Virus genome (UHGV): UHGV-0127988 | Origin: a virus | DNA: 61,599 nucleotides | Strand: one strand, 5' to 3' | Shown: positions 1,232-25,279 of the stretch, one piece after another | Layout of the letters: each line of letters starts with the position of its first letter | Position numbering within the stretch: the first letter of the stretch is position 1 | Made by a program: the position numbers and the translations under genes | Notes under the pieces: generated by a model | Database searches by the model: none | The model's input: only the letters and a program-made list of their open reading frames with translations | What the model was told of the DNA's origin: nothing

Positions 1232-1249
1232 GTATACGGAGCGGGGACT

Positions 1250-4129: not shown

Positions 4130-4131
4130 CA

Positions 4132-6421: not shown

Positions 6422-6439
6422 ACTTGGTAATGGTCGTGC

Positions 6440-6476
6440 GTTGCCCTTTTGTCTATCATGTTGCTAAAAGGGCAAC
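6440..6476. repeat. Perfect 11-bp inverted repeat with a 15-nt spacer (GTTGCCCTTTT ... AAAAGGGCAAC)
   Basis: Read directly from the sequence, between two structural-module genes. Could be a hairpin or a protein-binding site. Confidence 0.5.
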
Positions 6477-6487
6477 GGGGCAAACGT

Positions 6488-6913: not shown

Positions 6914-6916
6914 ACC

Positions 6917-8415: not shown

Positions 8416-9593
8416 TGGCTATTGGTGCTGGATTGGGGGCATTCATGTCCGGCCTGACACAGGGTGCCCAGGGCTACGCTCAACTAAAAAGTGATGCTGG
8501 ACGAGCTAAACTGCAGGATATGCAGATCAAAAACCTCGAACAGGAGCAGGCTGACCAGCAGGCGCTGCGCCAGATCGGGCAGGACTACGGAAAGGCAGTG
8601 GAGGGTGAATTCAATCCAGACGCTCAAGCAAAAATCTACAACGAACAATTCGTTCCTCGCTATGTTCAGCAATATCTACAGCAAGGGAAAGTTGCAGAGG
8701 CTCAGGCGTTTCAAAAATACGCTCAAGATGCCAACGTTCAGCAGGGGCTGAAATACGGCTCCTCGTTCATGCGTGCCGTCCAGCTTGGTGACGCTGAAGG
8801 GGCGATGGGCAGCATGGTGAAGATGTTCAATCAGCCGGGATATTTCGAAAATGGGTATTCTGCAGTGGGCGCTAAGCTGACACGCGACAAAGATGGTAAC
8901 GCAGCCGGGATGGATATCACTCTGAGAAACGACGCGACTGGCGAAACCACAACGCATACTTTCAACACGCTGGAAGATGCGTACCGCACGGTTATGCCGT
9001 TCGCCGACCCGAAGAATGTTTTCGACTATGCAATGCAGCAGATCGCCGCCAGCGCGAAGAACAAGGCGGAAGTGCAGAAAGAGGATCGGGCCTGGAACCG
9101 CGACCTGACGAAAATTCAGATCCAGCAAGGGAACACGCTGGAATCCCAGGCGAACCAGTCGCAGCTGCGCCGCGCTGAAGAAGCAGAGAAGCTGCGGAAC
9201 GGCGGCGGAAGCAATGTCGTGCGCGATGCCAAAGCGAAGGAAGAGTACCTGCGCTCTCGCGGCGTTCCAGAGGATCGCATTAAATCTCTTGCTCCTCAGA
9301 TGGTCGGACTGGAAAATCAGGGCGTGCCCATCACGAAGCGCATCGATACCTACGTCATCGAGAAGAACAAAGACATTCTCGATAAGGACTGGCAGAAACT
9401 GAGCGATGCCGAGAAGACCGAGCGCGCAGTGAAAGAGCTAAAAGTGCGTGATGAGGCGGCTAGTGGCTACTATGGCGGACAGGGTGCGGGGCTTACACCA
9501 CAGTCCAGCCAGCAAACGCAGGGTGCGCAGCCGCGTATGGCGCTGGGCTACGACACCAAAACCGGCAAACCGGTAATGATCCCCGTCAAGTGA
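8415..9593 (+). CDS. Internal virion or ejection protein (392 aa)
   Basis: Sits directly upstream of the giant transglycosylase-containing protein, as T7 gp14/gp15 do relative to gp16. Coiled-coil-rich. Confidence 0.45.
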   Translation: MAIGAGLGAFMSGLTQGAQGYAQLKSDAGRAKLQDMQIKNLEQEQADQQALRQIGQDYGKAVEGEFNPDAQAKIYNEQFVPRYVQQYLQQGKVAEAQAFQKYAQDANVQQGLKYGSSFMRAVQLGDAEGAMGSMVKMFNQPGYFENGYSAVGAKLTRDKDGNAAGMDITLRNDATGETTTHTFNTLEDAYRTVMPFADPKNVFDYAMQQIAASAKNKAEVQKEDRAWNRDLTKIQIQQGNTLESQANQSQLRRAEEAEKLRNGGGSNVVRDAKAKEEYLRSRGVPEDRIKSLAPQMVGLENQGVPITKRIDTYVIEKNKDILDKDWQKLSDAEKTERAVKELKVRDEAASGYYGGQGAGLTPQSSQQTQGAQPRMALGYDTKTGKPVMIPVK

Positions 9594-9617
9594 CGGCTAA
9601 TTCTCCGAGGAAATATA

Positions 9618-12600
9618 GTGGCTAAAAACTCTTTGCCGTCTGAGCTGGATCTTGTCCAGCAGCCGTCTTATGGCCTGCCTGACTGGGCGCAGCGCCCGCA
9701 GGCGCAGACCGTCAACACCGGCGGCGCTGTGCCGTTCCAGGCTGAATTCCTCTCTGCATCCCAAAAATACGGCGTGCCGTTTAACGTCCTGATGGGCCTG
9801 GCAGAGCAGGAGTCTTCTTTCAACCCCACCGCTATCGGCGTACCTACCAAATACGGCCGTGCCAAAGGCCTGATGCAGTACATCGATGACACCGCCTCAC
9901 GTATGGGTATCAACCCTTACGATCCTGTGCAGTCCATCGATGCCGCTGCTCGCCAGCTGCGTGAGCGCCTGGATAAAGGCTACTCGATGCAGGAGGCAGT
10001 GCAGGCGCACTTTGGTGGTGATGACCGTGCGCAGTGGGGACCGAAAACAGCGCAGTACGGGAAAGACGTTTTAGGCCGCGCCGAGAAGTTCCTGGGCGGC
10101 GGTCAGTCCGTTGCCGCCGGTCAGCTAACCCAGCAGCAGGAACAGCCACAAACCCGCATGGGGCAGATCGCACAGGATTACCCGCCAGCGCAGAGCGCAA
10201 TGGAGAACCTGGACCAGACGCGCCAGCGCACCCAGGCGCTTCTCGATGAGATGAACAAGGAAGAGCCAGGCCGCTACCGACCTCTCACCGACGAGGAAAT
10301 GCAGCGGCTGTCGCAGCACATCACGCCGGAAATGCAGCAGCAGGCGATGCAGAGCGGCAAGCCTATCGAAATTAATATTCCTGACCTGGTGCAGCCGGGC
10401 CAGGCGGTGACGGCGCAGCAGAGCCAGCAGCAGCCAGAAAAACGGCAGGCAGAGCTTAAACCGTGGGAGCCGACCCTTTGGGAGCGAATTAAAGGCCTCA
10501 TCCCTGGAAATAAAGATGCCGCAACCGTCGAAATGATTGCGCGCGACATTGCCAATCGTGAAGGCGTCTCTGTCGAGGAAGTCTATAAATCGATGGGTGG
10601 CGCACGTCCAATGTGGAACCCGGAAGGCCGAGCACCCATCCAGGCGCTGGCAGAGGGCGCAGGAATTGTTGGAAAACAGCTTCCCAACGTTCCTTCAGCC
10701 GTGGCTAATGCCTCACTTCGCGCTGTTCGTGGTGGTGACATTAGCGCCGATGGCAGCACGATGATGGATCGGGTAATCTCCGCCACCAACGTACCGCAGG
10801 AAGAAAACCAGGACCCTAACTATCAGTCAGTGAGCGGCATCGATCAGTCTCTTGGCTTCTCGCTATCGAATATGGTTCCGAGTATCGCTGCAGGCGCTGC
10901 CGGTAACGTAGTCTCTCCCGGCGTCGGTACTGGCGCTGGCTTTGCTACATCCGCAGCTATCGCCTACCGCGCCAGTAAAGACCAGTTCCTTGATGACGTG
11001 AAGAAAAAGGCCGAGACGGAAAAGGGTAGCAAGCTAACGGAAAAAGAGTGGGAAACGCTGAAAGACACGTCTGAAGCGGCCGCTATGAAGTACGGCGCGT
11101 GGGAAGCGATCCCCGAAGCCCTGTCTAACGTCATAGCTCTGAAAATGATTTCCCACCCGCTGGTGGGTGCTACCAGAGCAGCACGCATTGCGGATGCAGC
11201 TAAACGACTGGGTAAAGAGCAGATTGCCGAGCAGGTGACTGAAACTGCGACAACGCTGGGACAAAATGAGGCCGAAAGAGAAGTAGGCCTGTCCAACGAG
11301 AAAATGAGCGTTGCGGATGCCTTCCGCCAGCAGGCTATTCAAACCGCGCTGGTAAGTGGGATTCAGGGCGGCACCATGCAGGCTGGTCGCGCCATCTATG
11401 ACCGCGTAAGAGGGAATCGCGCAGCATCTACCGAAGAGCGGCCGACAACCGATCCATCTGCTCAGCCGGAAGCGACAGCAACCGATCCGGCACAGGAAGC
11501 CCAGCCAGAACAGGCAGCAACACCGACAGCAGAACAACCACAGGAAGCACAGCCTTCCGGCCCTCTCGGTCGTGCCGTCCAGAACGGTACGCAGCAGGTT
11601 GTTAACGATGTTGCCGCACAGGCAGAGCAGAACACCGCTGCAGCCGAAAACCACACGTCTGATGAGTTCATGGGACCGGTTGGCTCGGAAACAACCGTTC
11701 ATCCGGCTGATGACCCCAATGACAGCTTCCCGGCTGTAGTTCAGGGGTATCGCAACGGAAATGCTATTGTTGTCGATGAAAACGGCGAAATTCTGGAGTT
11801 TGGCCCGCATGAAGTCGTGCGTCCGGACGCCGCTGCCGACGTTGTGCAGCAGCAACCGGAGCAGGAGGTCACTGAGCCAGTTCAGCAGACAGAGAAGGCA
11901 ACTGAAGAGCAGCCACGCCAGCCGAAGGCCGTCAGCGAAATGACTGAGCCAGAGCTACGCGACCGCCTGAAATATCTGCACCAGCAAGCCAAATCATTCG
12001 GCGGCTGGAACGAGCGACTGACGAAAGCCCGCCGGGAAGTCGAGAAGGCTATTGATGCGAAAAACGCACCTGTGCAGGGGGAGATAGATACCGAAGCCGT
12101 TCAGGCTAACGGCCTTACTCCGTCTGAGAATCGCCGCCTGAAAGAGTTGCTGAATAAGGACTCACGCACACAAGCGGAAAGCGCCGAGGCTACCCGACTT
12201 AATGAGAAGTCGCGTGCATCCCTGACCGAAGAAGTACCACAGTCAACCAATGAAAATACCGTTGGTGCTGAAGGTATGACGCTGGTTCACGGCTCAGGAA
12301 ATGGAAACCTGACGCTCGATGATATCCAGATTGTTCGCGCCAATGGTCAGAAACAGGGCAAGAAAGGCCGGGTTTACGGCGGTTTCTACGGCACCTCCGA
12401 GAAAGATTCCGCGCAGGCTGAAGGCTACGCCGGGATGATGGAGGGCACCCCGACCGTCTATGACGTGAAAATCAAGCCCGGCACGAAGGTTTTCCAGAAA
12501 GAAGGGGATATTACCCGCCTTTCCGAGAACACCATCAACGACCTGGTTTCGAAAGGTTACGGCGTTGTCGTCGGTACAGATCCGCGCGGACGTACCGAAT

Positions 12601-15600
12601 ACGCCGTTATCGATAAAAATGCGATCCAGCAGCTATCAAAAAGAGGGGTGGCAAATGCCGAAACCACGAACGTATCAGATGAGCGCAGTGCGCAGCCTGA
12701 AGTTTCTCAGGTCGCGCAATCTGATAACGCGCCAGCAGTACAACCAGATGAAAGCGGAGCTGCTGCACAGTCCGAGCGAGTGGCATCCAATACCGACCAG
12801 CCTGCTGCCGGTAGCGGAGCTGATGCTATTTCTGGACGTACAACCGCCGACACCGACCCTTCACTGAACAAAGACGGCAGTCAGAAATGGTTCGGTACCG
12901 AGCGGAAGGCGAACGAGTACCTGCAGAAGAAAGGTATCACCGGCACGCATGAAATCCGCCTGGTGGATCGTCGCTTCGAAATCCACGCCAAAGGCCAGGA
13001 TGTCAACCAGACGACCGAAACTGTCAACCAAACTGCCGATAATGTTAAGCCAGCGACCAAAAGCGTCAAAGGCAAGAACGGGCCGCGCTACAACCGTGTG
13101 AAGAAGCTGCTGGGCGCTGAAGAGGGCGATATCGTCACTCCGCAGGAGGATATCGGCTATACCACCGCTGGTAGGCAGTACCGCATTTACCAGATCGAGA
13201 AGAACGGTATTGTTCACCTGACCAACCTCGAAACCAATGGCGGCACTACGGTTAGCCTGGCAGACCTGGAGCGTGCCAATTCCCGCAGATCGGGCTTTAA
13301 CCGTGTTGAGGCTGTTGCTGAACCAGCACCGGCGGCACAGGAACAGCAACAAAGCGAACCAGAGGCCGAAGAGAAAACTGCATCTACCCAAACCAGGAGC
13401 GAAAAAAACGTTGCTGCTACGGATGCGGATCGCTTCTCCGGTAACAAGCTGTTTACCGCTGATAAAGTCGCCGCTGCGCGCGCCCGAATGAAGTCGAAAT
13501 TTGGCCAATTGAACAGCGGCCTGGATCCTGAGCTGCTGATTGATGGGATGACTATTGCGGGAGCTTACATCGAGAGCGGTGTTCGCAAGTTCTCTGATTA
13601 TGCAAAATCGATGGTCGATGACTTCGGTGCCGACGTTAAGCCCTACCTGCTGTCATTCTGGGAAGGCGCTCGCAACTATCCAGGCCTGGATACCGAAGGC
13701 ATGACCAGTGTCGAGCAGAGTGCTAAAGAGCATGCTGCGCTGATGCAGCCGGAGGAAACCAAAACCCCGGCAGTGGGAGAGGTGCAGGCGAAGCCTGCAA
13801 GCCGCACGCGTAAGACTGGTAAAGCTGGAGATATGACTATCACCCAGGATTGGGGCGTAGAGCATATTGACGGTTACGGGGAAAACTCATCTGGTCGGGA
13901 AACAGGCAGTGACCTGAAAGACGCGTTCCTGAAGGAAGCCCGCAAATACCTAAACACCGTTGCTGACCAGCTGGAGGATGCAGGCTTTAAACCGACCACA
14001 AACGCAAAAGGTAAGTTTGTTGGGGCTGTGAGTGTCAATGCTGGCGGTGATGCTGTTTCCGGCGATGTAAACCTGGTGATGGATGGTCCGAACGGAATAG
14101 GTGTTTATATCCACATCGGTGGTACATCGTTGCGCGGAGTGGTTCCCACTACCGATAGCGGCATCGGCATTATGATGCGCACCACCACGCCAGAGGACAA
14201 ATACGGCGCGAAATCGCAAAACCTATGGTCCCAGGTAAATATCTCTGCGACCGACATGGCTAAACAGGCTATCCTGTTAGTTGAAAAAAGAGTTGCAGCT
14301 GAGCAGCATAATCGGCAGCAGAACGAAAAATCCCAAGCCCGCGTTACCAATGGGCTTGATGACATGGTATCTAGTTTTGACCGTGAGGTAACACCGAATG
14401 AATCTCAACCACTGGGTGAGCCAGGCGAGGGATCACTGGAAACAGCACCAGCCGACGCTATTCGCGCAGCTGAAAGCGAAGAACCAGCTGGGCAACGCTC
14501 TCCGCGAAGCAGCGGAGAAGACGTATCAGGAAGTGAGCGAGCTGGAGGCTCAGGGCTTCAGCGAGCACGAAGCGTTCGAGATGACGCGGGAGAAGTACCT
14601 GTTTCCACCGGAAGAGGCGAGCCTGCAGGACAGCGAAACCAATCCGGCAGCAGCCAGGATGCAGGACGTAATGCGGATCGTGAACAGCCAGTACGGGGAC
14701 AGCGACCAGCCGCAGGAACAGTAGCGGAAGACCGCCCGGCGCGCGCATTCAACATCGATGCGGACGAGATCGGCAAGGGCGGTAAGAAAACGAAGTTTCG
14801 CAATAACGTCGCGGCAATTCGCCTGCTGAAAGACCTGGAGCGCATGAACCGCCAGGCCACGCAGGAAGAGCAAGCCATCCTCGCCAAATACGTTGGTTGG
14901 GGCGGTATCCCGGAAGCATTCAAGCGCACTGACGGCAGCGCCACCAGCGGCTGGGCGAAAGAGGTCGCGGAGCTGGACGAAATTCTGCAGCCGGAAGAGT
15001 ACCAGGCCGCCGCGTCGTCCACCAAAAACGCCCACTACACCAGCCCGGAGATCGTTTCCGGCATGTGGCAGGCAATGCAGCGCCTGGGCTTCACCGGTGG
15101 ACGCGTGCTTGAGCCGTCTGTCGGCGTGGGTAACTTCTTTGGCCTGATGCCTTCAGACGTGCGCAGCGCGTCAGCGCTCCACGGCGTCGAGCTTGACCGC
15201 ATCACCAGCGGCATAGCTACCCAGCTTTACCCGGAGGCGAAGATCGCCCGCATGGGGTACCAGGACTACGTTATTCCAAATGGCTATTTTGACATCGCAA
15301 TCGGCAACCCGCCGTTCGGTGCTGATAAGCTGTACGATGGCCGCCGCAAAGACCTGTCAGGTTTCAGCATCCATAACTACTTCTTCGCCCGTACCGTCGA
15401 TGCCCTGCGCCCTGGTGGCGTCATGACTATGGTTGTAACGAACCGGTTTATGGATGGGGCGAGCGATAAGGCGCGCCAGTACATTGCCGACCGTGCCGAC
15501 CTGCTGGGGGCTATCCGCCTGCCAAATGACGCCTTTGCGAAAAACGCCGGCACCCAGGTGACGACCGATATTATCTTCCTGCGCAAGCGTCTGCCGGATG

Positions 15601-18600
15601 AAACGCCAAGCGCTATGAACAGTTCCTGGCTTGAAACCGTCGATTTCACCGACAAAAACGGCAAGGTCGTGCCGCTGAACAAATATTTCGTCATGCATCC
15701 TGAAAACATGCTGGGCGAGTTCGGAGCTTTCGGATCGATGTACCGTGAAGGCGACTCGGCGCTGATTGCGCGCGAGGGGCAAAATACCTCGCAGCTGCTG
15801 GGTGAGGCTATTCAGCGTCTGCCGGAAAACATCATCAAGCCGGTGGAAGCTGTGAAGCCAGAAAGCCGCGCCAGCGTGGTGGCAGAGAATGCCCGCGTGG
15901 GTTCCGTCTTCCTGGATGGCGATAACGTCATGATGCGTGACAGCGACGAGCTGGGCGAATCCCGCGCTACGGCGGTCAGCTTCCCGAACGAGAAAGCAAA
16001 AGCCCGCGTCGTCGGCATGATCGGCGTTCGTGACGAGCTGGCGGCGCTGCGCAAGCTGCAGCTGGATCCGAAGGCGGACGATGCAGCTATCGAGTCAGCC
16101 CGCAAGCGTCTGAACCGCGCCTATGACGCTTTCGTTAAAGAGCATGGCTATCTGAACCAGGACGCGAACAAGCGCTTACTGCGTGACGATCCGACCTGGC
16201 CGCAGCTGGCAGCGCTGGAAGACGATTTCGATAAGGGGCTTTCTGCTACTGTCGCCAAAAAGACCGGCGAGGAAGCCCGCCAGCCGAGCGCGAAGAAGGC
16301 CGCTATCTTCAGTCGCCGCACCCAGTCACCATATACCGCGCCCACCAGCGCGGCGACCGCGAAGGATGCCCTCGTTACCTCGCTGGCCGAAAAAGGCCGC
16401 GTTGACATGGAGCTGATGGCGAACCTGTACGGCAAGGAAGAAAGCCAGATTATCCGCGAACTGGATGACCTGGTTTATTCCGATCCGGAAAAAGGCTGGG
16501 TGACGCGCGAAGAATACCTGTCCGGCAACGTGAAAACGAAGCTGGCGCGTGCCCGCGAGAGGGCGATGACCGATGCCGCTTTCAACCGCAACGTTGAAGC
16601 GCTGGAGGCCGTACAGCCGAAAGATATCGAGGCGGTGGATATTAACGTTAAGCCTGGGGCCACCTGGCTACCGGCTGACACGATGGGCGCGTTTGCCGAC
16701 ATGATTGCGGAAACCAGCGGCGCGAAGGCATTCTATAACCCGGTTAGCGCCAAATGGTCATTCCCAGGCCTGGCGTCGTCGGCGGCAGCGCAAACCCGCT
16801 ACGGTACCGACCGCGCGGATGTTCGCACAATCCTCGAAGCAGCTGCGTCGCAGAAGGCGATCCAGATTTTCGATAACCACCGCGACGGCACCCGCACGCT
16901 GAACGAGACGGAAACCCAGCTCGCTAACGACAAGGTGAACGCGGTCAAGGAAGCATTTGGCCGCTGGATCTGGTCTGACGATGCTCGCCGCCAGTCGCTG
17001 GCGCGTATCTATAACGACCAGTTCAATACCGATGTGCCGCGTGAATATGACGGTTCTCACCTGACATTCCCCGGCAAAATCTCCGATGACATTATCCGTC
17101 TGCGTCCGCACCAGGCTAACGCCGTCTGGCGAATTGTGCAGGGCGGTACCACTCTGGCGGATCACGTAGTCGGCGCGGGCAAGACCTTCACCCTGATTGC
17201 TGCAGCGATGGAGTTGCGCCGGATGGGCCTGGCGCGGAAACCGCTGTTTGCGGTGCCGAACCACCTGGTAGGGCAGTGGGCGACTGACTTTGTGAAGCTG
17301 TATCCCGGCGCGAAGGTGCTGGCCGCCACGAAGCGCGATTTTGAGAAGGAAAACCGTAAAAAGCTGTTCGCCCGTATCTCTACCGGTGACTGGGACGCGG
17401 TGATCGTTGCTCACTCGTCGTTTGGCAAGGTGCAGGTAGACCCGGAGCACGAAGCCGAGTTTATCCGCGAGCAGATTGACGATCTGACATCCTCTATCGA
17501 GGCTATCCGGGAGGCTGAAGGCCAAAGCAGCCGCAACGTGAAGGATGCTGCAAAGCGCCGCGATGCACTGAAAGAACGACTGAAAAAGCTGGTGGACAGC
17601 GAAAACAAGGATGATTCCCTGTACTGGTCAGAGCTGGGCGTCGATGCGCTGTTTGTCGATGAAGCGCACGAATTTAAGAACCTGGCTTACTCCACCAGCA
17701 TGCGTAACGTCGCAGGCCTGGGCGATGCGTCCGGCAGTCAGCGCGCGATGGACATGTTCATGAAGGTCCGCCACGTCCTGAAGGCTACCGGCGGCCGGAA
17801 CGTTGTGTTTGCGACCGGTACGCCGATCAGCAACACGATGGCTGAGATGTACACCATGCAGCGCTACATGGATTACGACAACCTGAAGGCGCAGGGGCTT
17901 TCCCACTTCGACGCCTGGGCGCGCATGTTTGGTGAGGTTGTCACCGACTGGGAGCTTTCGCCGTCTGGCAAGTACAAGATGACCGCGCGTTTTGCGAAAT
18001 TCGTGAACATGCCTGAGCTGATGCAGCGTTACACCTCGTTCGCGGACGTTATCAACCGCGACGACATTAACCGCCAGCTGGCCGCCCAGGGCAAAAAGCT
18101 GCCGGTGCCGAAGATGAAGGGCGGGAAGCCGACCAACATCGTTGTGCCGCGCAGCAGCATGCAGGCAACCTATATCGGGGAGCCAATCACGGATAACAAC
18201 GGCATCGAGCAGTATCCGCAGGGATCGCTGGTCTACCGCGCCGAGCACCTGCCGAAGAAGGCAGAAAAGGGCGCGGACAACATGCTCAAAATCATGAGTG
18301 ACGCCCGCAAGGTGGCGCTGGATATGCGCCTCATCGAGCCAGGCGCGCCAGACTTTGAGCGCAGCAAGACCAATGAGGCCGCCCGCCGCATCAAAGAGGA
18401 CTACGATAAGTGGGCCGATGACCGTGGCGCACAGCTGGTGTTTATCGATCTCTCGACGCCAAAGAACGCCAAAACAGCAGAGGCTGCCAGAATCCGTGAC
18501 CTGGTAGAGAAGGCCGAGCAGGGTGACGAGGCCGCCGCCGAGCAGCTGGACAAACTCAGTCCGGACGAGCTGGCCGCGCTCGATGGCGAATTCTCCGTCT

Positions 18601-21600
18601 ACGATGACCTGAAACAGAAGCTGGTGGCGCTGGGCATCCCGGAAAACGAGATCGCCTTCATTCACGACGCTAAAACCGAGCTACAGAAAGAAGAGCTGTT
18701 CGGGAAGGTTCGCTCTGGCCGTGTTCGCGTTCTGCTGGGTTCAACGTCGAAGATGGGCGCTGGTATGAACGTGCAGGATCGCCTGGTTGCGCTTCACCAC
18801 CTCGATGCTCCGTGGCGTCCGTCCGACCTGGAACAGCGTGAAGGGCGCATTATCCGCCAGGGTAACAAGCTCTATGACCGCGATCCGGAAGGCTTCGAAG
18901 TCGGCGTTTACCGCTATGCGACGAAACAGACCCTCGATAGCCGCATGTGGCAGACCCTGGAGGCGAAAGCCCGCTTTATCGAGCAGGTTCGCAAGGGTAA
19001 CACCGCGCAGCGCGAAGTTGAGGATATTGGCGGCGAGGCTGCAAACGCGGCAGAAATGAAAGCGGCATCGAGCGGCAACCCTCTCATCCTGGAAGAGATG
19101 ACCCTGCGCCAGAAAATGCGCCGCCTGGAGAACGAGCGCGCCGGTTTCGACCGCGATCAGTATCGTATCCGCGATACCATCCAGCAGCAGCGCCGTAAAG
19201 CCGAGTGGATGGCGAAGTCTCTGGACGAGCTGCGCCAGGACGTAAACCTGTCGGTGCCGGACAAGTTCGCTATGACCATCAACGGCCAGGAGCTGGAAAA
19301 GCGTAAGGACGCAGGCGAAGCGTTACTGTCTATCGCTGCCGATATGGAGCACAACCACAGCGATGAGCGCCAGATCGGCCAGTACGGCGATTTCCCGATG
19401 AGCATGGAGCGCACCAGCGCCGAGCAGTTCACCATCAACCTGGAGGGCGCTGGTTCCTATACCGTCAATTTCGGTATCGGTGCCGACCCGCTGGGACTGA
19501 CGATGCGTATCAGCAACGCCGTGAAGGATTTGGGCGACGCTATCACCGTCATGGAGCAGGGCCGCGAGAAGGCGCTGGCAGAGATCCCGAAACTGCAGGA
19601 GCAGCTGGCGGAATGGCCAAAAGCGCAGGAGCTGAAAGACACCCGTAAGCGTCATGCCGAAGTGGTGGACCAGCTGAAGCCGAAGAAGGCCGAAAAGCCT
19701 GCCGAAAGTGTTGCTGCCCCGGCAACGCAAGAGCCGAAACCGCAATACTCCGTTGCGACTAACCGCGCTGTTCGTGGTGCCCTGGCGCGCGGAGATGCCG
19801 GTGCGCTGGTGGCGAAACTGCAGAAAGATGGGCGGATCGTTATTCACGACACGCCGCCGGAAAACCGCCGTGCTGACGCTGCCGGTTGGGTAGATCCTGA
19901 CGGAAGTATCCACCTGGCGCTGTCGAACCTGACAGCAGAAACGGCGCAGCCGGTGCTGATGCATGAGCTGTTCCACTCTGGCATGAACGCAATCAGCGGT
20001 TCGCCGCGCTGGAACAACCTTATTTCCCGCCTCAATGAGTACGTGGAGGCCGCCAGCCGTCGCGAGGGCCGCGAAACCGCATGGGATCGCGCCTATACCC
20101 GTATCGAGCAGAGCGAGGAAGGCAGTCGCCGCGCTGAAGAGCTGGGCGCGTATGCCGTCGAGCACTTCGAGCAGATGCCTCCTGGCATCCGGAAGTGGGC
20201 CGAAACCGTGATCGGTACCGTGAAAAACTGGGTGCAGCAGCGGTTTGGTGTGCAGCTGGGCGAAGTTACTCCATCACAGCTTCGCGCGCTGGCCGCCGGT
20301 GCCGTCCGTAACCAAAGCCCCGTAAAAGGGGCCACGGAGACGGCTTACAGCATGAAGCCGGGCGAAGCCAAGAAAGAGGCGGAAGCCTTCTATGGCAAGA
20401 AGATTGACGCAACCCGCGATCTGACCGGCGACGCCCTTACCGCTGCCATGCCGACGCTGCTGCACTGGACGCCTGGCCGCTTCCTGCTGAAGCGCGTGGC
20501 GAAGGATATCCCGGCGCTGGGCGAATACGCCGACATTAAGCTGAAGATGGACACGTTCCGCGATGAATGGCACGCGCTCACCGATAAACTGGCGCAGCGC
20601 TGGCAGAAGTACCGGGCCAAGAACGCTGCCGAGAACAGCCAGCTGATGCAGATCATGCATGAGTCCACGCTGGCGCAGGCTGACCCGTCCGAGAAGTTCG
20701 AAAGCCGCCTGAATGGTGCGGACCTGAAGATCCTCCGGAACAAGAAAACCAGCAGCGATGAATGGCAGCAGGCCAACAAAAAGGCGATGGATGAGTCTGC
20801 CCGCGAGAAGGAATGGACGAGGCTGAATGCCGAGTTCCAGAAGCTGTCTCCGGAAGGTCAGGCGCTCTACCGCGACGTTCGCGACCTGTACAGCAAGCTC
20901 GCCAACACCCAGGAGGCGATCATAGTCGCCAACCTGGAAAAAGCGATGGAGTTCCGCATTAAGGAAGCCCAGCGCGAATTTGAGGACGAGATGCAGGCCA
21001 TCAACGACGAGGGGTTGAAGGGAGAGGATCGCGAAAAAGCCATTACGGCCGCCAAGAAGAAACTCGATAACGCCCGCCGCCGCGATGCGTGGAACCGACG
21101 CGCCCGCGTTAACCAGCTGCGCCAGGAGTTCGAAAGCAACCGCCTGGCCGGGCCTTATTTTCCGCTGGCGCGCTTCGGTGATTACTTCGTCACCGCCCGC
21201 AACAAAAAGACCAATGAGATCGAGGTATTCTCCCGCCAGGAGACGCCTTTCCAGCAGTCTCGCGTAGCGAAGGAGCTGCGTAAGCAGGGGTTTGAGGTTG
21301 AAACTGGTCTGATTTCGAAGACCGCAGAGCTGCGCAAGCAGGTTCCGGCGGAGTTCGTTGCGCGTATCGAGGACATTCTGAAGGGACTGCCAGCCGCGAA
21401 AGAGACGCAGGATCAGGTCTGGCAGCTCTACCTGGAGCGCATGCCGGATATGTCACTGCGCAAAAACCGGATCCACCGTAAAGGCCGAGCCGGTTTTGAA
21501 GAGGATGCGCTGCGTGCGTTCGCCTCTCACATGTTCCACGGCGCACACCAGACCGCCCGCATGAAGTTTGCGATGGATCTGCAGGACCAGCTGGACGAGG

Positions 21601-23216
21601 CGAAGCGCCAGACCAAATATACCCGCAACCCGACACGTAGCGGGCTGGTGCTGGAGCAGGCCGAGAAGAACCACCAGTACGTCATGAACCCGACCAGCAA
21701 CCGCATTGCGCAGGTCGCCACCCAGGGCGCGTTTATGTGGTACCTGGCACAAAGCCCGGCGGCGGCGCTGGTGAACATGGGGCAGACCGTGATCGTCGCA
21801 CCGTCCAAACTGGCCGCATTCTACGACAAGGGAACCGCGCGGGGCATGGCGGTAGCGCTGGGGCAAATCAATAAGGCGATGTTTGACCTTGCCAACGGGC
21901 GCACCTTCGCAGAGCAGTCGCGCCGCGTTACCCCGCAGGAAAAAGCGGCCGTCAGTGAGGCATACCGGATCGGGCTTATCACCCGTACCCAGTCTCATGA
22001 TGTGGCGGGCATTGCGGATAGCGGCATCAAATACCGCCCGACGCGCGCCCGCATCATGGCGGCTATGTCGTTCATGTTCCACCATACTGAGCGCATCAAC
22101 CGCGAAGCGACGTTCCTCGCCGCGTACCGGATTGCGCGTAAGCGTGGCCTGGATCACCAGAACGCGATCCGGAAGGCGTCAGAGCTGACCTGGGATTCCC
22201 ACTATGACTACCAGAACAGCAGCCGCCCGGCGGTGATGCACAGCAATACCGGCAAAGCGCTGCTGGTGTTCCGCAACTACTCGCTGAACATGATTTCGGA
22301 TCTGGCTTACACCACCTACGAGATCATCAACCCACGTAACGCGCAGGAACGTCGCGAGGCACGCACTCAGATGATTGGCCTGCTGGGGTCGCTGGCGTTC
22401 AATACCGGTATTCGTGGCCTGCCGCTGTTCGGCATGCTGATGGTCATCGCCGGTATGTTCTCCGACGATGGCGAGGATCCGGAAGTCGAGCTGAAAAAGA
22501 CCCTTCTCCAGTACCTGCCGCCGTCGATGGTCGGTATCATGATGGACGGCGTACCTGGCTATGCCTTCGGCGTCGAGCTGTCGGGCCGTATCGGCTTCGG
22601 GGATCTATGGTTCCGTTCCGATGACATGGACCGGGAAGGGGATTCCGCATACCTGTACTGGCTGCAGCAGCTGTTAGGCCCGGCATCATCCATTCCGTAC
22701 ACTGCCGTGCGCGGCATTAGCCAGATCCAGGACGGCTACACCTGGCGCGGGATGGAAAACCTGGTGCCGAAGGCAATCCGTGACCCGATGAAGGCCTACC
22801 GCTACTACAGCGAAGGCGTCACCACCAAAAATGGTGACCCTATCGTCGATGAGGTAGGCGGCTGGGACGTGCTCAAGCAGGCGATGGGCTTCACGCCAGC
22901 GCGTGTCACTGAGCAGTACAAGTTGAACAGCTACAACATGAACAAGCAGAAGACGATCACCGAGGAGCGGAGTAAGCTGCTGGGCGATTTTTATAAGGCC
23001 TGGAAAGCTGGTGATGAGAAGAAAGTGGACCAGATTACTGATAAGATGCGTGCATACTCTGAAAAGTACCCGGAAATGCGCATCGATGGTGATGCTGTCC
23101 GCAGTTCGCTTTCAAGACGTGAGAAATATCGCGGTCAAGCCCTGGGTGGCATGAACTATAACCAGAAGCTGATACCGCGTCTCCAGGAGGAGCAGCCTGG
23201 TAAGGTATATCGGTAG
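9618..23216 (+). CDS. Giant multidomain virion or ejection protein (4,532 aa). Domains in order: lytic transglycosylase (SLT), N6-adenine DNA methyltransferase, SNF2-family helicase, HExxH motif, C-terminal TM segments.
   Basis: GTG start with a GAGGAA ribosome-binding site. SLT motif LAEQESSFNP...GLMQY (aa about 60-90). MTase motif I VLEPSVGVGNFFG and motif IV NPPFG (nt about 15306). SNF2 motifs GAGKT (nt about 17172), DEAH (nt about 17658), helicase-C LLGSTSKMGAGMNVQD and QREGRIIRQG (nt about 18730-18865). HELFH at nt about 19961. Hydrophobic helices at nt about 22240-22470. Confidence 0.85.
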   Translation: MAKNSLPSELDLVQQPSYGLPDWAQRPQAQTVNTGGAVPFQAEFLSASQKYGVPFNVLMGLAEQESSFNPTAIGVPTKYGRAKGLMQYIDDTASRMGINPYDPVQSIDAAARQLRERLDKGYSMQEAVQAHFGGDDRAQWGPKTAQYGKDVLGRAEKFLGGGQSVAAGQLTQQQEQPQTRMGQIAQDYPPAQSAMENLDQTRQRTQALLDEMNKEEPGRYRPLTDEEMQRLSQHITPEMQQQAMQSGKPIEINIPDLVQPGQAVTAQQSQQQPEKRQAELKPWEPTLWERIKGLIPGNKDAATVEMIARDIANREGVSVEEVYKSMGGARPMWNPEGRAPIQALAEGAGIVGKQLPNVPSAVANASLRAVRGGDISADGSTMMDRVISATNVPQEENQDPNYQSVSGIDQSLGFSLSNMVPSIAAGAAGNVVSPGVGTGAGFATSAAIAYRASKDQFLDDVKKKAETEKGSKLTEKEWETLKDTSEAAAMKYGAWEAIPEALSNVIALKMISHPLVGATRAARIADAAKRLGKEQIAEQVTETATTLGQNEAEREVGLSNEKMSVADAFRQQAIQTALVSGIQGGTMQAGRAIYDRVRGNRAASTEERPTTDPSAQPEATATDPAQEAQPEQAATPTAEQPQEAQPSGPLGRAVQNGTQQVVNDVAAQAEQNTAAAENHTSDEFMGPVGSETTVHPADDPNDSFPAVVQGYRNGNAIVVDENGEILEFGPHEVVRPDAAADVVQQQPEQEVTEPVQQTEKATEEQPRQPKAVSEMTEPELRDRLKYLHQQAKSFGGWNERLTKARREVEKAIDAKNAPVQGEIDTEAVQANGLTPSENRRLKELLNKDSRTQAESAEATRLNEKSRASLTEEVPQSTNENTVGAEGMTLVHGSGNGNLTLDDIQIVRANGQKQGKKGRVYGGFYGTSEKDSAQAEGYAGMMEGTPTVYDVKIKPGTKVFQKEGDITRLSENTINDLVSKGYGVVVGTDPRGRTEYAVIDKNAIQQLSKRGVANAETTNVSDERSAQPEVSQVAQSDNAPAVQPDESGAAAQSERVASNTDQPAAGSGADAISGRTTADTDPSLNKDGSQKWFGTERKANEYLQKKGITGTHEIRLVDRRFEIHAKGQDVNQTTETVNQTADNVKPATKSVKGKNGPRYNRVKKLLGAEEGDIVTPQEDIGYTTAGRQYRIYQIEKNGIVHLTNLETNGGTTVSLADLERANSRRSGFNRVEAVAEPAPAAQEQQQSEPEAEEKTASTQTRSEKNVAATDADRFSGNKLFTADKVAAARARMKSKFGQLNSGLDPELLIDGMTIAGAYIESGVRKFSDYAKSMVDDFGADVKPYLLSFWEGARNYPGLDTEGMTSVEQSAKEHAALMQPEETKTPAVGEVQAKPASRTRKTGKAGDMTITQDWGVEHIDGYGENSSGRETGSDLKDAFLKEARKYLNTVADQLEDAGFKPTTNAKGKFVGAVSVNAGGDAVSGDVNLVMDGPNGIGVYIHIGGTSLRGVVPTTDSGIGIMMRTTTPEDKYGAKSQNLWSQVNISATDMAKQAILLVEKRVAAEQHNRQQNEKSQARVTNGLDDMVSSFDREVTPNESQPLGEPGEGSLETAPADAIRAAESEEPAGQRSPRSSGEDVSGSERAGGSGLQRARSVRDDAGEVPVSTGRGEPAGQRNQSGSSQDAGRNADREQPVRGQRPAAGTVAEDRPARAFNIDADEIGKGGKKTKFRNNVAAIRLLKDLERMNRQATQEEQAILAKYVGWGGIPEAFKRTDGSATSGWAKEVAELDEILQPEEYQAAASSTKNAHYTSPEIVSGMWQAMQRLGFTGGRVLEPSVGVGNFFGLMPSDVRSASALHGVELDRITSGIATQLYPEAKIARMGYQDYVIPNGYFDIAIGNPPFGADKLYDGRRKDLSGFSIHNYFFARTVDALRPGGVMTMVVTNRFMDGASDKARQYIADRADLLGAIRLPNDAFAKNAGTQVTTDIIFLRKRLPDETPSAMNSSWLETVDFTDKNGKVVPLNKYFVMHPENMLGEFGAFGSMYREGDSALIAREGQNTSQLLGEAIQRLPENIIKPVEAVKPESRASVVAENARVGSVFLDGDNVMMRDSDELGESRATAVSFPNEKAKARVVGMIGVRDELAALRKLQLDPKADDAAIESARKRLNRAYDAFVKEHGYLNQDANKRLLRDDPTWPQLAALEDDFDKGLSATVAKKTGEEARQPSAKKAAIFSRRTQSPYTAPTSAATAKDALVTSLAEKGRVDMELMANLYGKEESQIIRELDDLVYSDPEKGWVTREEYLSGNVKTKLARARERAMTDAAFNRNVEALEAVQPKDIEAVDINVKPGATWLPADTMGAFADMIAETSGAKAFYNPVSAKWSFPGLASSAAAQTRYGTDRADVRTILEAAASQKAIQIFDNHRDGTRTLNETETQLANDKVNAVKEAFGRWIWSDDARRQSLARIYNDQFNTDVPREYDGSHLTFPGKISDDIIRLRPHQANAVWRIVQGGTTLADHVVGAGKTFTLIAAAMELRRMGLARKPLFAVPNHLVGQWATDFVKLYPGAKVLAATKRDFEKENRKKLFARISTGDWDAVIVAHSSFGKVQVDPEHEAEFIREQIDDLTSSIEAIREAEGQSSRNVKDAAKRRDALKERLKKLVDSENKDDSLYWSELGVDALFVDEAHEFKNLAYSTSMRNVAGLGDASGSQRAMDMFMKVRHVLKATGGRNVVFATGTPISNTMAEMYTMQRYMDYDNLKAQGLSHFDAWARMFGEVVTDWELSPSGKYKMTARFAKFVNMPELMQRYTSFADVINRDDINRQLAAQGKKLPVPKMKGGKPTNIVVPRSSMQATYIGEPITDNNGIEQYPQGSLVYRAEHLPKKAEKGADNMLKIMSDARKVALDMRLIEPGAPDFERSKTNEAARRIKEDYDKWADDRGAQLVFIDLSTPKNAKTAEAARIRDLVEKAEQGDEAAAEQLDKLSPDELAALDGEFSVYDDLKQKLVALGIPENEIAFIHDAKTELQKEELFGKVRSGRVRVLLGSTSKMGAGMNVQDRLVALHHLDAPWRPSDLEQREGRIIRQGNKLYDRDPEGFEVGVYRYATKQTLDSRMWQTLEAKARFIEQVRKGNTAQREVEDIGGEAANAAEMKAASSGNPLILEEMTLRQKMRRLENERAGFDRDQYRIRDTIQQQRRKAEWMAKSLDELRQDVNLSVPDKFAMTINGQELEKRKDAGEALLSIAADMEHNHSDERQIGQYGDFPMSMERTSAEQFTINLEGAGSYTVNFGIGADPLGLTMRISNAVKDLGDAITVMEQGREKALAEIPKLQEQLAEWPKAQELKDTRKRHAEVVDQLKPKKAEKPAESVAAPATQEPKPQYSVATNRAVRGALARGDAGALVAKLQKDGRIVIHDTPPENRRADAAGWVDPDGSIHLALSNLTAETAQPVLMHELFHSGMNAISGSPRWNNLISRLNEYVEAASRREGRETAWDRAYTRIEQSEEGSRRAEELGAYAVEHFEQMPPGIRKWAETVIGTVKNWVQQRFGVQLGEVTPSQLRALAAGAVRNQSPVKGATETAYSMKPGEAKKEAEAFYGKKIDATRDLTGDALTAAMPTLLHWTPGRFLLKRVAKDIPALGEYADIKLKMDTFRDEWHALTDKLAQRWQKYRAKNAAENSQLMQIMHESTLAQADPSEKFESRLNGADLKILRNKKTSSDEWQQANKKAMDESAREKEWTRLNAEFQKLSPEGQALYRDVRDLYSKLANTQEAIIVANLEKAMEFRIKEAQREFEDEMQAINDEGLKGEDREKAITAAKKKLDNARRRDAWNRRARVNQLRQEFESNRLAGPYFPLARFGDYFVTARNKKTNEIEVFSRQETPFQQSRVAKELRKQGFEVETGLISKTAELRKQVPAEFVARIEDILKGLPAAKETQDQVWQLYLERMPDMSLRKNRIHRKGRAGFEEDALRAFASHMFHGAHQTARMKFAMDLQDQLDEAKRQTKYTRNPTRSGLVLEQAEKNHQYVMNPTSNRIAQVATQGAFMWYLAQSPAAALVNMGQTVIVAPSKLAAFYDKGTARGMAVALGQINKAMFDLANGRTFAEQSRRVTPQEKAAVSEAYRIGLITRTQSHDVAGIADSGIKYRPTRARIMAAMSFMFHHTERINREATFLAAYRIARKRGLDHQNAIRKASELTWDSHYDYQNSSRPAVMHSNTGKALLVFRNYSLNMISDLAYTTYEIINPRNAQERREARTQMIGLLGSLAFNTGIRGLPLFGMLMVIAGMFSDDGEDPEVELKKTLLQYLPPSMVGIMMDGVPGYAFGVELSGRIGFGDLWFRSDDMDREGDSAYLYWLQQLLGPASSIPYTAVRGISQIQDGYTWRGMENLVPKAIRDPMKAYRYYSEGVTTKNGDPIVDEVGGWDVLKQAMGFTPARVTEQYKLNSYNMNKQKTITEERSKLLGDFYKAWKAGDEKKVDQITDKMRAYSEKYPEMRIDGDAVRSSLSRREKYRGQALGGMNYNQKLIPRLQEEQPGKVYR

Positions 23217-23382: not shown

Positions 23383-23453
23383 TGTGGTTATAGCAACGCT
23401 CGGTCTAAAATCGAAACATACCCAATAAGCTGCGCAAGACGTGCGGCGATCCC
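23383..23453 (+). promoter_or_regulatory. Late promoter candidate (TTGTGG-N18-TAAAAT) plus a conserved leader motif, upstream of the lysis operon. Copy 1 of 3.
   Basis: Shares AGCAAC..AATCGAAAC..GCTGCGCAAGACGTGCGGCGATCCC with 53029-53084. The 25-mer is identical at 23429-23453 and 53060-53084. Confidence 0.5.
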
Positions 23454-23467
23454 TCAAGGAGTCGCGC

Positions 23468-24040
23468 ATGTCGCAGTCGCTTACAGAGAAAGACTATCAG
23501 GCCGCCGCCAGTAAGCTCGGTGTTCCTGTTGCAGCAGTGAAGGCGGTTTCTTCCGTCGAAAGTTCGGGAAACGGCTTCCTGGCAGACGGCCGCCCGAAAA
23601 TTCTTTTCGAACGTCACATCTTCAAAAAGCGGCTCATCGCCAAAGGCATCGATACCAGCAAGATCCCCTCCGGTATCTGTAGCTCAACCCCTGGCGGCTA
23701 TCTCGGTGGGGCGGACGAACACGAACGTCTCGATACCGCAGCCAAATACGACCGCGATTGCGCGCTGGAGTCCGCCTCCTGGGGATCGTTTCAGGTCATG
23801 GGATACCACTGGAAAGCGCTCGGCTATCCGACCCTCCAGGCGTTCATTAACGACCAGTACAAGGCCGCAGGTCAGCTCGATACGTTCGTTCGCTTCATCA
23901 AGGCCGATCCGCGCCTGGTGAAAGCGCTGAAAGCGAAAGACTGGACGTCGTTCGCCAGCATCTACAACGGCCCGGCATACGCGAAGAACGCCTATCACAC
24001 GAAAATGGCCTCCGCTTACAAACAGTTCGGAGGTGTCTGA
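23468..24040 (+). CDS. Endolysin, N-acetylmuramidase-like family
   Basis: AAGGAG ribosome-binding site. Motifs SSVESSGNGF...ILFERHIF...WGSFQVMGYHW are typical of the phage N-acetylmuramidase endolysin family. Confidence 0.8.
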   Translation: MSQSLTEKDYQAAASKLGVPVAAVKAVSSVESSGNGFLADGRPKILFERHIFKKRLIAKGIDTSKIPSGICSSTPGGYLGGADEHERLDTAAKYDRDCALESASWGSFQVMGYHWKALGYPTLQAFINDQYKAAGQLDTFVRFIKADPRLVKALKAKDWTSFASIYNGPAYAKNAYHTKMASAYKQFGGV

Positions 24041-24390
24041 TGGACGAGTTCAACCCTGGTGGTGGTACTCTTGGCGCAATTGGTGCAGCCATTACCGCTT
24101 TTATCGGCGGATTTTTTTGGCTCCGAAAGACCCTCGCCAGCACGGCGGCGGACGTGGCTGGGGATCGTGCAGAAGTTAACATGATTCAGGTTCTTCAGGA
24201 GGAAAACGCCCGCCTCCGGGAGCGCCTTACCGCAGTGGAGCAGGAGCGCAACGAGCAGTTTAAGCAGATTGCAGACCTGTCCGCTCAGCTCCAGATCATC
24301 CAGGACAAGGTTCAGACACTGACGACGACAAATCAGCAATTGTCTGAAGAGGTCCAGAGACTCCGGGCCGCCGTGGAGAGAACATCATGA
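24040..24390 (+). CDS. Lysis-associated membrane protein (holin candidate; single N-terminal TM helix plus coiled coil)
   Basis: TM segment GTLGAIGAAITAFIGGFFWL. ATGA overlap with the endolysin gene. Confidence 0.5.
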   Translation: MDEFNPGGGTLGAIGAAITAFIGGFFWLRKTLASTAADVAGDRAEVNMIQVLQEENARLRERLTAVEQERNEQFKQIADLSAQLQIIQDKVQTLTTTNQQLSEEVQRLRAAVERTS

Positions 24391-24716
24391 CAGACGAAAA
24401 GAAAATCCGTCACAGCCGGGCTGTGTGGGGGATCGCTGCGCTGTTCAGCATTGCCGGTGCTTGCGCCGGTTTTGCCGCGAGCCACCTGCTGATTTCTACG
24501 CGAGCCGCGTCGGAGATTACCAGCATACGAGCAGCCTATGAAGAGTCCCGCCAGTCGAGACAGGCCGCGCTTGATATGTGCCTTACCATTGCGCCGCAAG
24601 CAGCGCAAAAAGCCGCAGCAGCAGCCACAAAGGCCGCAGATGCCGCAGAAGCAGCAAAGAAAGCAGCCGGGAAGGTCGCCACCGATGAAGAGCGCATAGA
24701 GGGCGAAATTAAATGA
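24387..24716 (+). CDS. Lysis-associated membrane protein (holin or antiholin candidate)
   Basis: N-terminal TM segment AVWGIAALFSIAGACAGFAASHLLI with an Ala-rich C-terminus. Overlapping start and stop codons with both neighbours. Confidence 0.5.
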   Translation: MTDEKKIRHSRAVWGIAALFSIAGACAGFAASHLLISTRAASEITSIRAAYEESRQSRQAALDMCLTIAPQAAQKAAAAATKAADAAEAAKKAAGKVATDEERIEGEIK

Positions 24717-25279
24717 CTATCCCGTCCCTTATCTCCGCAAAAATAACCGCCGCAATGTGCATTATCTGCACATTATTGGGGTGTCTCGCCGTGTGGTATG
24801 TGCAGGAATTGCGCATTGACGCAAAAACATCATCCCTCAACTCAGCGCACGCTGAAGAGAAGGCGAAGTGGGACCGCGAGAAGATAGCGATCACCACCAA
24901 AGCCCAGCAGGATACTGCCGAAGCCCTGGAGCGCCAGAAACAGGCCCAGGCCGCCGCCGCTGCTGCCGATAAAGAAGCCCAGGAGAAATTAGCAAATGCC
25001 GAACGTGAAAATGCTGCTCTGCGCTATGACGTTGCCACTGGCAATAAGCGGGTGCGGCTCCTTGAAGCAAACCTCGCCACAGCCAACCTTGCAGCCCGTC
25101 AGCACGCCGCAGGCGGAAGTACCAGCGCCAGCAGCGTGGGCGATGGAGAAGGAGCCGAGCTTACTGCCGAAGCTGGATCAGTTGTTCTCGATATCCGGGC
25201 CGGAATCCAGCGACGGGAAACCAAAATAGAGTACCTGCAGAGCTACATCAATGATGTAGTGAAGCAGTGCAAACGGTAA
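24713..25279 (+). CDS. rz: Rz-like i-spanin
   Basis: N-terminal TM helix, coiled coil, and an RYDVATGNKRVRL motif typical of Rz. Confidence 0.75.
   Translation: MTIPSLISAKITAAMCIICTLLGCLAVWYVQELRIDAKTSSLNSAHAEEKAKWDREKIAITTKAQQDTAEALERQKQAQAAAAAADKEAQEKLANAERENAALRYDVATGNKRVRLLEANLATANLAARQHAAGGSTSASSVGDGEGAELTAEAGSVVLDIRAGIQRRETKIEYLQSYINDVVKQCKR
24996..25229 (+). CDS. rz1: Rz1-like o-spanin lipoprotein embedded in the +1 frame of Rz
   Basis: Lipobox LAISGC and a Pro-rich mature part. Fully nested in the Rz gene. Confidence 0.7.
   Translation: MPNVKMLLCAMTLPLAISGCGSLKQTSPQPTLQPVSTPQAEVPAPAAWAMEKEPSLLPKLDQLFSISGPESSDGKPK

Follow-up and report, generated by a model that had tools for sequence, protein, structure and literature searches.

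Phage P1 packages in its head the protein DarB, which is co-ejected with the DNA and is required for protection against EcoB and EcoK (PMC12810830; PMC5512222), its packaging requiring DarA, Hdf and other proteins (PMC12810830). A DarB-like methyltransferase-helicase is also present, together with an N-terminal transglycosylase, in the giant proteins of Bcep22-type phages, in which DarA is absent (PMC6630229). One of these proteins, JC1 gp69 (4,515 amino acids, aa), was represented by 51 unique peptides in CsCl-purified virions, second only to the capsid protein (PMC9144972), and that article reports the Bcep22 and BcepIL02 giant proteins in virions as well. In PMC6630229 and PMC9144972, the hypothesis of an injected anti-restriction protein is credited to Gill et al. 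2011. The framework of polyvalent proteins, including the methyltransferase-helicase dyad, was later set out by Iyer, Burroughs, Anand, de Souza and Aravind in 2017 (PMC5512222). Here we describe the giant protein encoded in the UHGV virus genome UHGV-0127988, a stretch of DNA of 61,599 nucleotides (nt) that we refer to as the window. This polyvalent 'DarB-like / PLxRFG' protein of 4,532 aa and ~500 kDa is encoded by a single open reading frame (ORF) at positions 9618..23216 (+ strand, as are all features given below unless otherwise indicated).

Our analysis points to a polyvalent virion protein of the Bcep22/PEp14/Lastavirus type. Its single chain combines several unrelated enzymes and would probably be synthesized late, packaged in the head and ejected together with the DNA. 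Its presence in the virion is suggested by analogy with the relatives mentioned above. The family has been known since 2011 and was framed as polyvalent in 2017, and the giant protein of the window is a striking but not a new member. An initial annotation of this DNA had been made from the sequence alone, and its claims are taken up with the corresponding results.

An intact giant ORF in a Klebsiella podophage

The giant ORF starts at a GTG codon with a GAGG sequence 7 nt upstream, lies 24 nt from the previous stop and occupies 22.1% of the window, in agreement with the 4,532-aa product covering 22% of the genome that had been initially annotated. Given the base composition of the window, the probability of finding no stop codon across 4,532 codons is ~1e-76. 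The counterparts of the gene are also single ORFs in LASTA (4,433 aa), PEp14 (4,914 aa) and Bcep22 (4,602 aa), which makes a frameshift error or a fused gene pair very unlikely. A split of the ORF by a frameshift had been named in advance as an observation that would speak against the annotation, and no sign of it was seen among these intact ORFs of 4,433-4,914 aa. The giant ORF is real and intact, and its product matched PHROG 10089 ('DarB-like antirestriction') with 5243 bits.

Megablast comparison of the giant gene revealed 95.7% nucleotide identity with those of LASTA, SJM3 and SopranoGao over 82-90% of its length, and remoter matches in phage ZX1, in the Erwinia phages Pavtok, Stean and PEp14, and in the Serratia phage Parlo. 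The annotations on the matched genes were "DarB-like antirestriction", "PLxRFG protein", "lytic transglycosylase" and "DNA methylase". On the basis of its sequence, the window is assigned to a podophage of Klebsiella belonging to the genus Lastavirus, two members of which, LASTA and SJM3, are podoviruses as observed by electron microscopy (PMC10052179).

A methyltransferase-helicase pair homologous to P1 DarB

The central part of the protein contains a gamma-type N6-adenine DNA methyltransferase at aa ~1730-1991 (14805..15590), recognized with the Pfam model Eco57I (E 3.3e-9), whose match at aa 1887-1963 scored 37.5 bits for a cutoff of 25.3. In this domain, motif I (EPSVGVGNF, aa 1832-1840) precedes motif IV (NPPF, aa 1897-1900), which is the gamma order. 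The match over the cutoff and the order of the motifs confirm the gamma-class methyltransferase of the initial annotation, and a search of PDB sequences gave weak matches of this domain to BsaXI and M.TaqI.

The methyltransferase is followed by a superfamily 2 (SF2), SNF2-like helicase/translocase at aa 2443-3136 (16944..19025). Matches to ResIII (aa 2493-2689) and Helicase_C (aa 3011-3082) were both over the Pfam cutoff, the helicase motifs GAGKT (aa 2519), DEAH (aa 2681) and QREGR (aa 3073) were present, and a ~200-aa insertion separates the two helicase lobes. The SNF2-rel_dom model reached 21.2 bits for a cutoff of 24.9, with similar scores for the PEp14 and Bcep22 proteins. The SNF2 helicase core that had been proposed for this region is thus certain at the level of SF2 from its motifs and Pfam matches, whereas membership in SNF2 is borderline, the specific model falling just below the cutoff, and rests on the published classification of the helicase of the methyltransferase-helicase dyad as SWI2/SNF2 (PMC5512222).

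BLASTP alignment with P1 DarB resulted in three collinear blocks, corresponding to the methyltransferase (DarB aa 41-275, E 5e-22), the helicase N-lobe (DarB aa 784-1184, E 3e-18) and the helicase C-lobe (DarB aa 1439-1564, E 1e-8), in which the catalytic motifs are aligned (I and IV of the methyltransferase; I, II and VI of the helicase), and tblastn searches with the pair also recovered darB of P1 and P7. These alignments bear out the likeness to the domain pair of P1 DarB that had been recognized initially, and point to true homology beyond the mere sharing of a domain pair. The pair was 34% identical to that of Bcep22 gp75 over ~1,680 aa. Across phages, tblastn identities were 73% for PEp14/Stean, 64% for Vibrio phage VvAW1, 58-60% for Microcystis and Ochrobactrum phages, and ~36% for Bcep22 and the Ralstonia group.

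The similarity to P1 DarB (2,255 aa) comprises the homologous methyltransferase and both helicase lobes, at an identity of only ~24-27%; the P1 protein, however, lacks the SLT, ADP-ribosyltransferase-like, HExxH, LPD39 and PLxRFG parts described below, and P1 is a myovirus whereas the window corresponds to a podophage. In addition, packaging dependent on DarA and Hdf is a feature of P1, and tblastn searches of the window with P1 DarA, Hdf, DdrA and DdrB gave only noise (E at least 0.076), a homologue being found for none of the four. Since these partners have no homologues in the window, packaging must depend on the giant protein itself or on unrelated partners, and their absence would fit a self-contained mode of packaging.

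An N-terminal transglycosylase domain shared with T7 gp16

An SLT lytic transglycosylase domain was identified at aa 46-137 (9753..10028; Pfam PF01464, E 4.6e-14). It contains the catalytic-type ES motif (E65-S66) followed by GLMQ, and these matches sustain the N-terminal SLT domain with a catalytic ES that had been annotated. The domain was 34% identical to aa 12-90 of T7 gp16 (E 9e-5), with E65-S66 aligned to the 'TES' of the T7 protein. The match to the fold model and the E-S motif place this domain, as judged from these two signatures, in family 1 of lytic transglycosylases (SLT). The giant protein resembles gp16 in having SLT at the extreme N-terminus of a large protein whose gene is located late in the virion module. 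Unlike gp16, it shares nothing past those ~90 residues and its C-terminal model has no match among solved structures; no similarity of the kind that would identify a gp16-type core protein was found between the two proteins outside SLT. A search of PDB sequences with the whole giant protein gave only weak methyltransferase and SLT matches.

A conserved C-terminal module behind variable cargo

The C-terminal 940 aa, in which the initial annotation had overlooked any known domain, correspond by profile matches to two known but uncharacterised domains: LPD39 at aa 3597-3806 (20406..21035; Pfam PF18858, E 7e-66), and PLxRFG at aa 3845-4518 (21150..23171; NCBIfam NF032893, E 2.3e-201, covering profile positions 1-679 of 681). 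The second domain includes the PLARFG motif (aa 3849-3854) and a conserved HHTERINRE stretch (aa 4155-4163). Nearly all of 74 homologues of the C-terminal module had the LPD39+PLxRFG organization, some of them carrying ART-PolyVal, MuF_C, RadC, HIRAN or LPD37 domains in front, and tblastn searches located the PLxRFG domain in 73 phage records, including those of the Pseudomonas F116 group, PBC5, Atu_ph08, and Vibrio and Microcystis phages. Due to its wide recurrence behind differing N-terminal parts, this module behaves as a constant part behind variable cargo. LPD39+PLxRFG proteins of ~380-1,100 aa were also observed in genomes of the bacteria Paracoccus, Brucella and Martelella, where they presumably belong to prophages, and these short proteins indicate that the module also exists with little or no cargo.

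The structure of aa 3590-4532 was modelled with AlphaFold2 (AF2) from 55 sequences, with a predicted local distance difference test (pLDDT) of 84 and a predicted template modelling score (pTM) of 0.81. The LPD39 domain is helical in AF2, and the C-terminal model as a whole is nearly all helical, with a small beta unit directly after the PLxRFG motif. Comparison with the predicted viral structures of BFVD gave 82 matches. Among the 50 matches listed, most had the suffixes _2, _3 or _4, which we read as later pieces of split proteins, and the names found among those listed included methyltransferase, helicase, "chromatin remodeling ATPase" and ART, along with others. An invariant charged cluster (E4158, R4162, R4171) was observed around HHTERINRE (22080-22106) within this structural-looking helical domain, and it could be an active or interaction site. 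The same stretch is covered by a faint profile match to the C-terminus of the Bcep22 protein; a link between that C-terminus and PLxRFG was considered and rejected, given the low probability of the hhalign match (6%).

The hydropathy of the protein was evaluated with a Kyte-Doolittle threshold of 1.6 in a 19-residue window. This value was not reached anywhere in the protein, the peak being 1.54 at aa 4263-4281 (family mean 1.36) and the next 1.17 at aa 4043-4068. Classical transmembrane helices in the C-terminal region were accordingly rejected, in disagreement with the C-terminal membrane helices of the initial annotation. The hydrophobic segments at aa 4263-4281 and 4043-4068 may be membrane-active; they are not evident transmembrane helices.

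An HExxH module and an ADP-ribosyltransferase-like module

A probable zincin-like metallopeptidase module lies between the helicase and LPD39 (aa ~3400-3570, 19815..20327), with the motif HELFH at aa 3449-3453 and EELGAYAVE at aa 3507-3515. Residues H3449, E3450, H3453, E3507, E3508 and E3515 were invariant in nine homologues with 35-51% identity, and the number of HExxH motifs expected by chance in the giant protein is ~0.05. From these two observations the HELFH motif is not a chance occurrence, a doubt that had been attached to it initially and that the invariance of the downstream EE..E residues also dispels. Because HExxH followed by a downstream Glu is the zincin signature, the module is best described as a probable zincin-like metallopeptidase. 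It was found by tblastn in 55 phage records, each time within giant proteins, the hosts of these phages being Ralstonia, Burkholderia, Pseudomonas, Serratia and Klebsiella.

Metallopeptidase (MPTase) modules are the commonest domain of polyvalent proteins, and it has been proposed that they process the chain (Iyer et al., PMC5512222). In our profile search, four short proteins contained the HExxH module just upstream of a PBECR1/PBECR3 nuclease or ART-PolyVal domain, an arrangement ahead of effector domains that would fit the proposed role in chain processing. Other searches with this module were negative. It had no Pfam hit (the best one was WLM, E 0.17, for one member), and its consensus gave nothing against Pfam either; its profile against PDB sequences gave only spurious matches to "HEMWHEG" of the mTOR FRB domain; and hhalign with P1 DdrB aligned 22 columns around the motif with a probability of 1.7%. 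A search of a word-indexed homologue database with the HExxH module alone produced no match; every match from this database was ~1,200 aa or shorter, so that full-length giants may be unrepresented in it.

A second module overlooked at first is located at aa 885-1010 (12270..12647) and is probably an ADP-ribosyltransferase (ART)-like one, resembling ART-PolyVal. It had 179 relatives (protein clusters) at E≤1e-3, most of which form part of proteins 1,000-5,400 aa long, some being stand-alone proteins of 105-230 aa. A His residue (in "LYHG"), "GGFY", another Tyr, an Arg and a Gly were nearly invariant, followed by "xEYV". This pattern, with H891, Y924 (in GGFY, aa 921-924) and E994 conserved, resembles the H-Y-E of ADP-ribosyltransferases. 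Weak matches to Pfam ART-PolyVal (PF18760) were obtained for 15 of 31 relatives, with a best E of 6.4e-6 and one individually listed score of 17.6 bits, far under the 31.2-bit cutoff; seven of the 31 matched DUF3990, and single members matched the Exotoxin A catalytic domain, Arr-ms and PARP. Comparison of profiles by hhalign in global mode with three ART-PolyVal domains gave a probability of 89% (E 2.6e-7), and that with one ART-PolyVal sequence 12%. The sequence of the window itself (aa 885-1010) had no Pfam match, BLASTP of the module against ART-PolyVal proteins found none, and its profile against PDB sequences found nothing relevant. The same module was observed to be common to the giant proteins of Salmonella phages 7-11 and SE131, Aeromonas phage phiARM81mr, Pseudomonas phage PspYZU01 and Arthrobacter phage Atuin, and a tblastn search with aa 881-1009 did not find it in the Lessievirus phages Bcep22, JC1 and BcepIL02.

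Mosaicism of the giant gene and module exchange among relatives

The region downstream of the ART-like module (aa 1011-1570, 12648..14327) is variable and mosaic according to BLASTP and MAFFT alignments, and had no Pfam match. With respect to LASTA and SJM3 it is diverged or replaced, although from aa 1225 onwards it resembles PEp14; the adjacent aa ~800-1050 are closest to phage ZX1, with 98.8% identity. This pattern suggests recombination between giant genes of Lastavirus lineages. Pfam searches at E≤10 on aa 140-800, 780-1060, 1051-1720, 1701-1861, 1990-2500 and 3240-3600 gave only noise.

The orthologues in the same genome position of other Lastavirus members (gp01 of LASTA, SJM3 and SopranoGao) differ from the window protein in the diverged or replaced aa 1011-1570 and in a net length of 99 aa; identity with LASTA was 84% for aa 1-1236 and 98% for aa 1567-4532. 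The Pavtokvirus proteins (PEp14 gp27 and Pavtok) share the SLT domain, a segment including the methyltransferase and the helicase (aa 1225-3378, 69% identical) and LPD39+PLxRFG (48% identity), the blocks matching PEp14 being aa 1-272, 616-815, 1028-3378 and 3597-4532. In PEp14 gp27 (4,914 aa; gene at 3967-18711), however, LPD37 follows the helicase in the slot of the HExxH module, and the ART-like module is lacking. The Lessievirus proteins Bcep22 gp75 (gene at 4240-18048), JC1 gp69 and BcepIL02 gp70 are of similar size (~4,500-4,600 aa), contain SLT, the DarB-type pair and the same HExxH module, and are likewise encoded by the last gene of the virion module; they differ in that LPD3 follows the helicase and LPD38 takes the C-terminal place of LPD39+PLxRFG.

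Judged from these comparisons, the swapping of modules between relatives is the cassette behaviour that defines polyvalent proteins. The presence of at least two unrelated enzymatic domains in a gene located among late/virion genes, as deduced from sequence, identifies the protein as a phage-type polyvalent protein. As in the polyvalent proteins described in PMC5512222, a methyltransferase-helicase dyad and HExxH, ART, LPD and lysozyme/transglycosylase domains lie on one chain, although here the HExxH and ART-like modules do not reach the thresholds of the Pfam models MPTase-PolyVal and ART-PolyVal. The virion RNA polymerase of N4 is another example of a polyvalent protein, in contrast to which the giant protein described here has no RNA polymerase, and T4 Alt, a packaged ART, has been named as a comparison of the polyvalent type.

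Gene neighbourhood

The giant gene is the final gene of the virion module, in a gene order shared by LASTA, PEp14 and Bcep22. It is preceded by genes for an internal virion protein (4494-6242, PHROG 511), an acyl-CoA N-acyltransferase (6449-6913, PHROG match) and two virion structural proteins (6917-8176 and 8415-9593, PHROG matches), with genes for a tail protein and a tail-fibre N-terminal protein further upstream in the module (PHROG). The module ends at a lysis cassette composed of endolysin, holin-like, unknown and Rz-like spanin genes (23441..25279, PHROG). The position typical of a podovirus ejection protein, as it had been annotated, is thus confirmed insofar as the gene closes the virion module behind internal and structural protein genes, although the resemblance to gp16 implied by it is limited to SLT. 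Other genes of the window include those for the large terminase, the portal and the major head protein, together with genes for tail proteins, an integrase and a stand-alone DNA methyltransferase; no tRNA was found in the window.

Three of these genes deserve separate mention. The acyl-CoA N-acyltransferase gene within the virion module is conserved in LASTA (gp05) and Bcep22 (gp69). The integrase gene (25956-27221, - strand; PHROG 1, E 7e-52) is located just past the lysis cassette. A strictly lytic nature was reported for LASTA and SJM3, the closest relatives (PMC10052179), and ZX1 was described as temperate (PMC9505181). The stand-alone DNA methyltransferase (40732-42192, + strand; PHROG 116, E 1e-83) indicates that the phage has, in addition to the methyltransferase of the giant protein, another DNA-modification enzyme of a conventional kind.

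Discussion

The domain composition of the giant protein, the homology of its central pair to P1 DarB and its location at the end of the virion module are in line with a polyvalent protein that would probably enter the cell with the DNA. The succession of events that we infer, from wall cleavage and ejection into the cell to anti-restriction, ADP-ribosylation and self-processing, would be as follows. The SLT domain would cut peptidoglycan while the ejection conduit crosses the wall, by analogy with T7 gp16. LPD39+PLxRFG may serve as a conserved chassis, directing entry into the particle and then passage through or into the ejection apparatus. The DarB-type pair would work in cis on the entering genome, blunting type I restriction before phage gene expression. 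The ART-like module probably modifies a host target, and the HExxH module probably cleaves the chain, freeing or activating the modules.

A number of observations weigh against this reading of the protein. We found no virion proteomics for any Lastavirus in the literature that could be searched, and the relatives backed by proteomics, those of Lessievirus, are only ~34% identical in the pair and have a different C-terminus (LPD38). Likewise, no demonstration of a giant DarB-like protein countering restriction was found in that literature, and to our knowledge the biochemical mechanism is unsettled even for P1 DarB. Comparison of the C-terminal AF2 model with the PDB gave no fold match, including T7 gp14, gp15 and gp16; as there is neither a structural match nor a classical transmembrane segment, the chassis role is proposed from conservation alone. 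The parsing of the C-terminal part with AlphaFold that had been recommended initially was confident for aa 3590-4532 but not for the HExxH module, whose AF2 model from a five-sequence alignment had a pLDDT of 45, and neither Pfam nor PDB sequences lend support to a zincin fold of this module. As for the ART-like module, its probable assignment derives from sub-threshold hits, and hmmsearch with the family profile did not recover three bona fide ART-PolyVal proteins.

Other roles can be envisaged for the protein. It might be an essential core protein of the ejection apparatus, an analogue of T7 gp16 in the trans-envelope conduit, with the enzymes as dispensable passengers. The alignment of the extreme N-terminal SLT with that of gp16, the position of the gene as the last of the virion module behind structural and internal protein genes, the maintenance of LPD39+PLxRFG across 73 phage records and even in proteins of 850-1,200 aa with little or no cargo, and the conservation of the most hydrophobic helix across the family argue for such a role; nevertheless, sequence similarity to gp16 ends at SLT, no hydropathy window attains the transmembrane threshold, and the Bcep22-type relatives have a different C-terminal module. 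We regard this role as a serious possibility, although not the favoured one; it is compatible with a polyvalent, ejected protein and does not exclude it, and is unsupported beyond SLT. Podophages such as T7 and N4 often need an enzyme to draw in most of their genome, and a further possibility is that the SNF2-like translocase, if the C-terminal module keeps it at the entry site, acts as a motor that reels the genome in while methylating it, coupling entry to protection. A methyltransferase and a helicase of the dsDNA-translocase type do occur on one chain, whose N-terminus is of the ejection type and whose C-terminal module is conserved, and no virion RNA polymerase was present among the ~20 window ORFs scanned. 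This motor is, however, difficult to reconcile with the many LPD39+PLxRFG proteins without helicase, with the varying position of the helicase relative to the C-terminal module among relatives, and with the fact that P1 DarB is dispensable on non-restricting hosts, and we consider it very unlikely. Just as slight is the likelihood that LPD39+PLxRFG is a structurally new podophage delivery chassis anchoring the translocase, with import and anti-restriction united in one coupled machine.

Two other proposals set the virion-borne protection of DNA aside. In one of them the main job of the protein would be host takeover by injected effectors that modify host proteins in the manner of T4 Alt, namely the ART-like module, the peptidase and perhaps LPD39, with the pair serving phage DNA metabolism. 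The conserved H-Y-E pattern of the ART-like module is in accordance with this, as are the occurrence of the HExxH module next to nuclease and ART effectors in other proteins, the flagging of LPD39 as possibly enzymatic (PMC5512222) and the "DNA metabolism" role guessed in the ZX1 paper. On the contrary, no other block is as large or as well conserved as the pair (69% identity with PEp14, 34% with Bcep22), which is a DarB homologue, the absence of the ART-like module from PEp14 indicates that it is accessory, and ordinary modification is provided for by the stand-alone DNA methyltransferase encoded elsewhere in the window. Takeover as the main job is in our view unlikely, an effector role being plausible for the accessory modules only. 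The remaining proposal, an unpackaged complex of late-expressed enzymes that modifies or repairs DNA in the cytoplasm, is where the enzymatic content alone would point; it conflicts with the homologues of JC1, Bcep22 and BcepIL02 detected in particles by virion mass spectrometry (PMC9144972), with an N-terminal SLT that would be useless in the cytoplasm, and with the location of the gene inside the virion module and its polyvalent architecture (PMC5512222), and we give it hardly any weight.

An ejected polyvalent protein in which an anti-restriction enzyme is fused to an ejection protein matches an already published hypothesis. The initial annotation had presented this arrangement as a departure from the Dar system of P1; it is not new, since it corresponds to the published reading of the family, and the LASTA orthologue is named "DarB-like antirestriction" in GenBank. 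Our additions to the published annotation are the conserved HExxH module, the presence of the ART-like module in Lastavirus proteins and a confident model of the orphan LPD39+PLxRFG module, and they represent refinements of a known picture rather than a discovery. Giant proteins of this type fill about one-fifth of the genome in a widespread group of podophages, both temperate and lytic, among which are Klebsiella phages that have been put forward for therapy. If the role suggested here is true, the phage would bring into the cell a pre-made counter-defence kit made up of a methyltransferase, a translocase, an ART and a peptidase, which would shape its host range against restriction.

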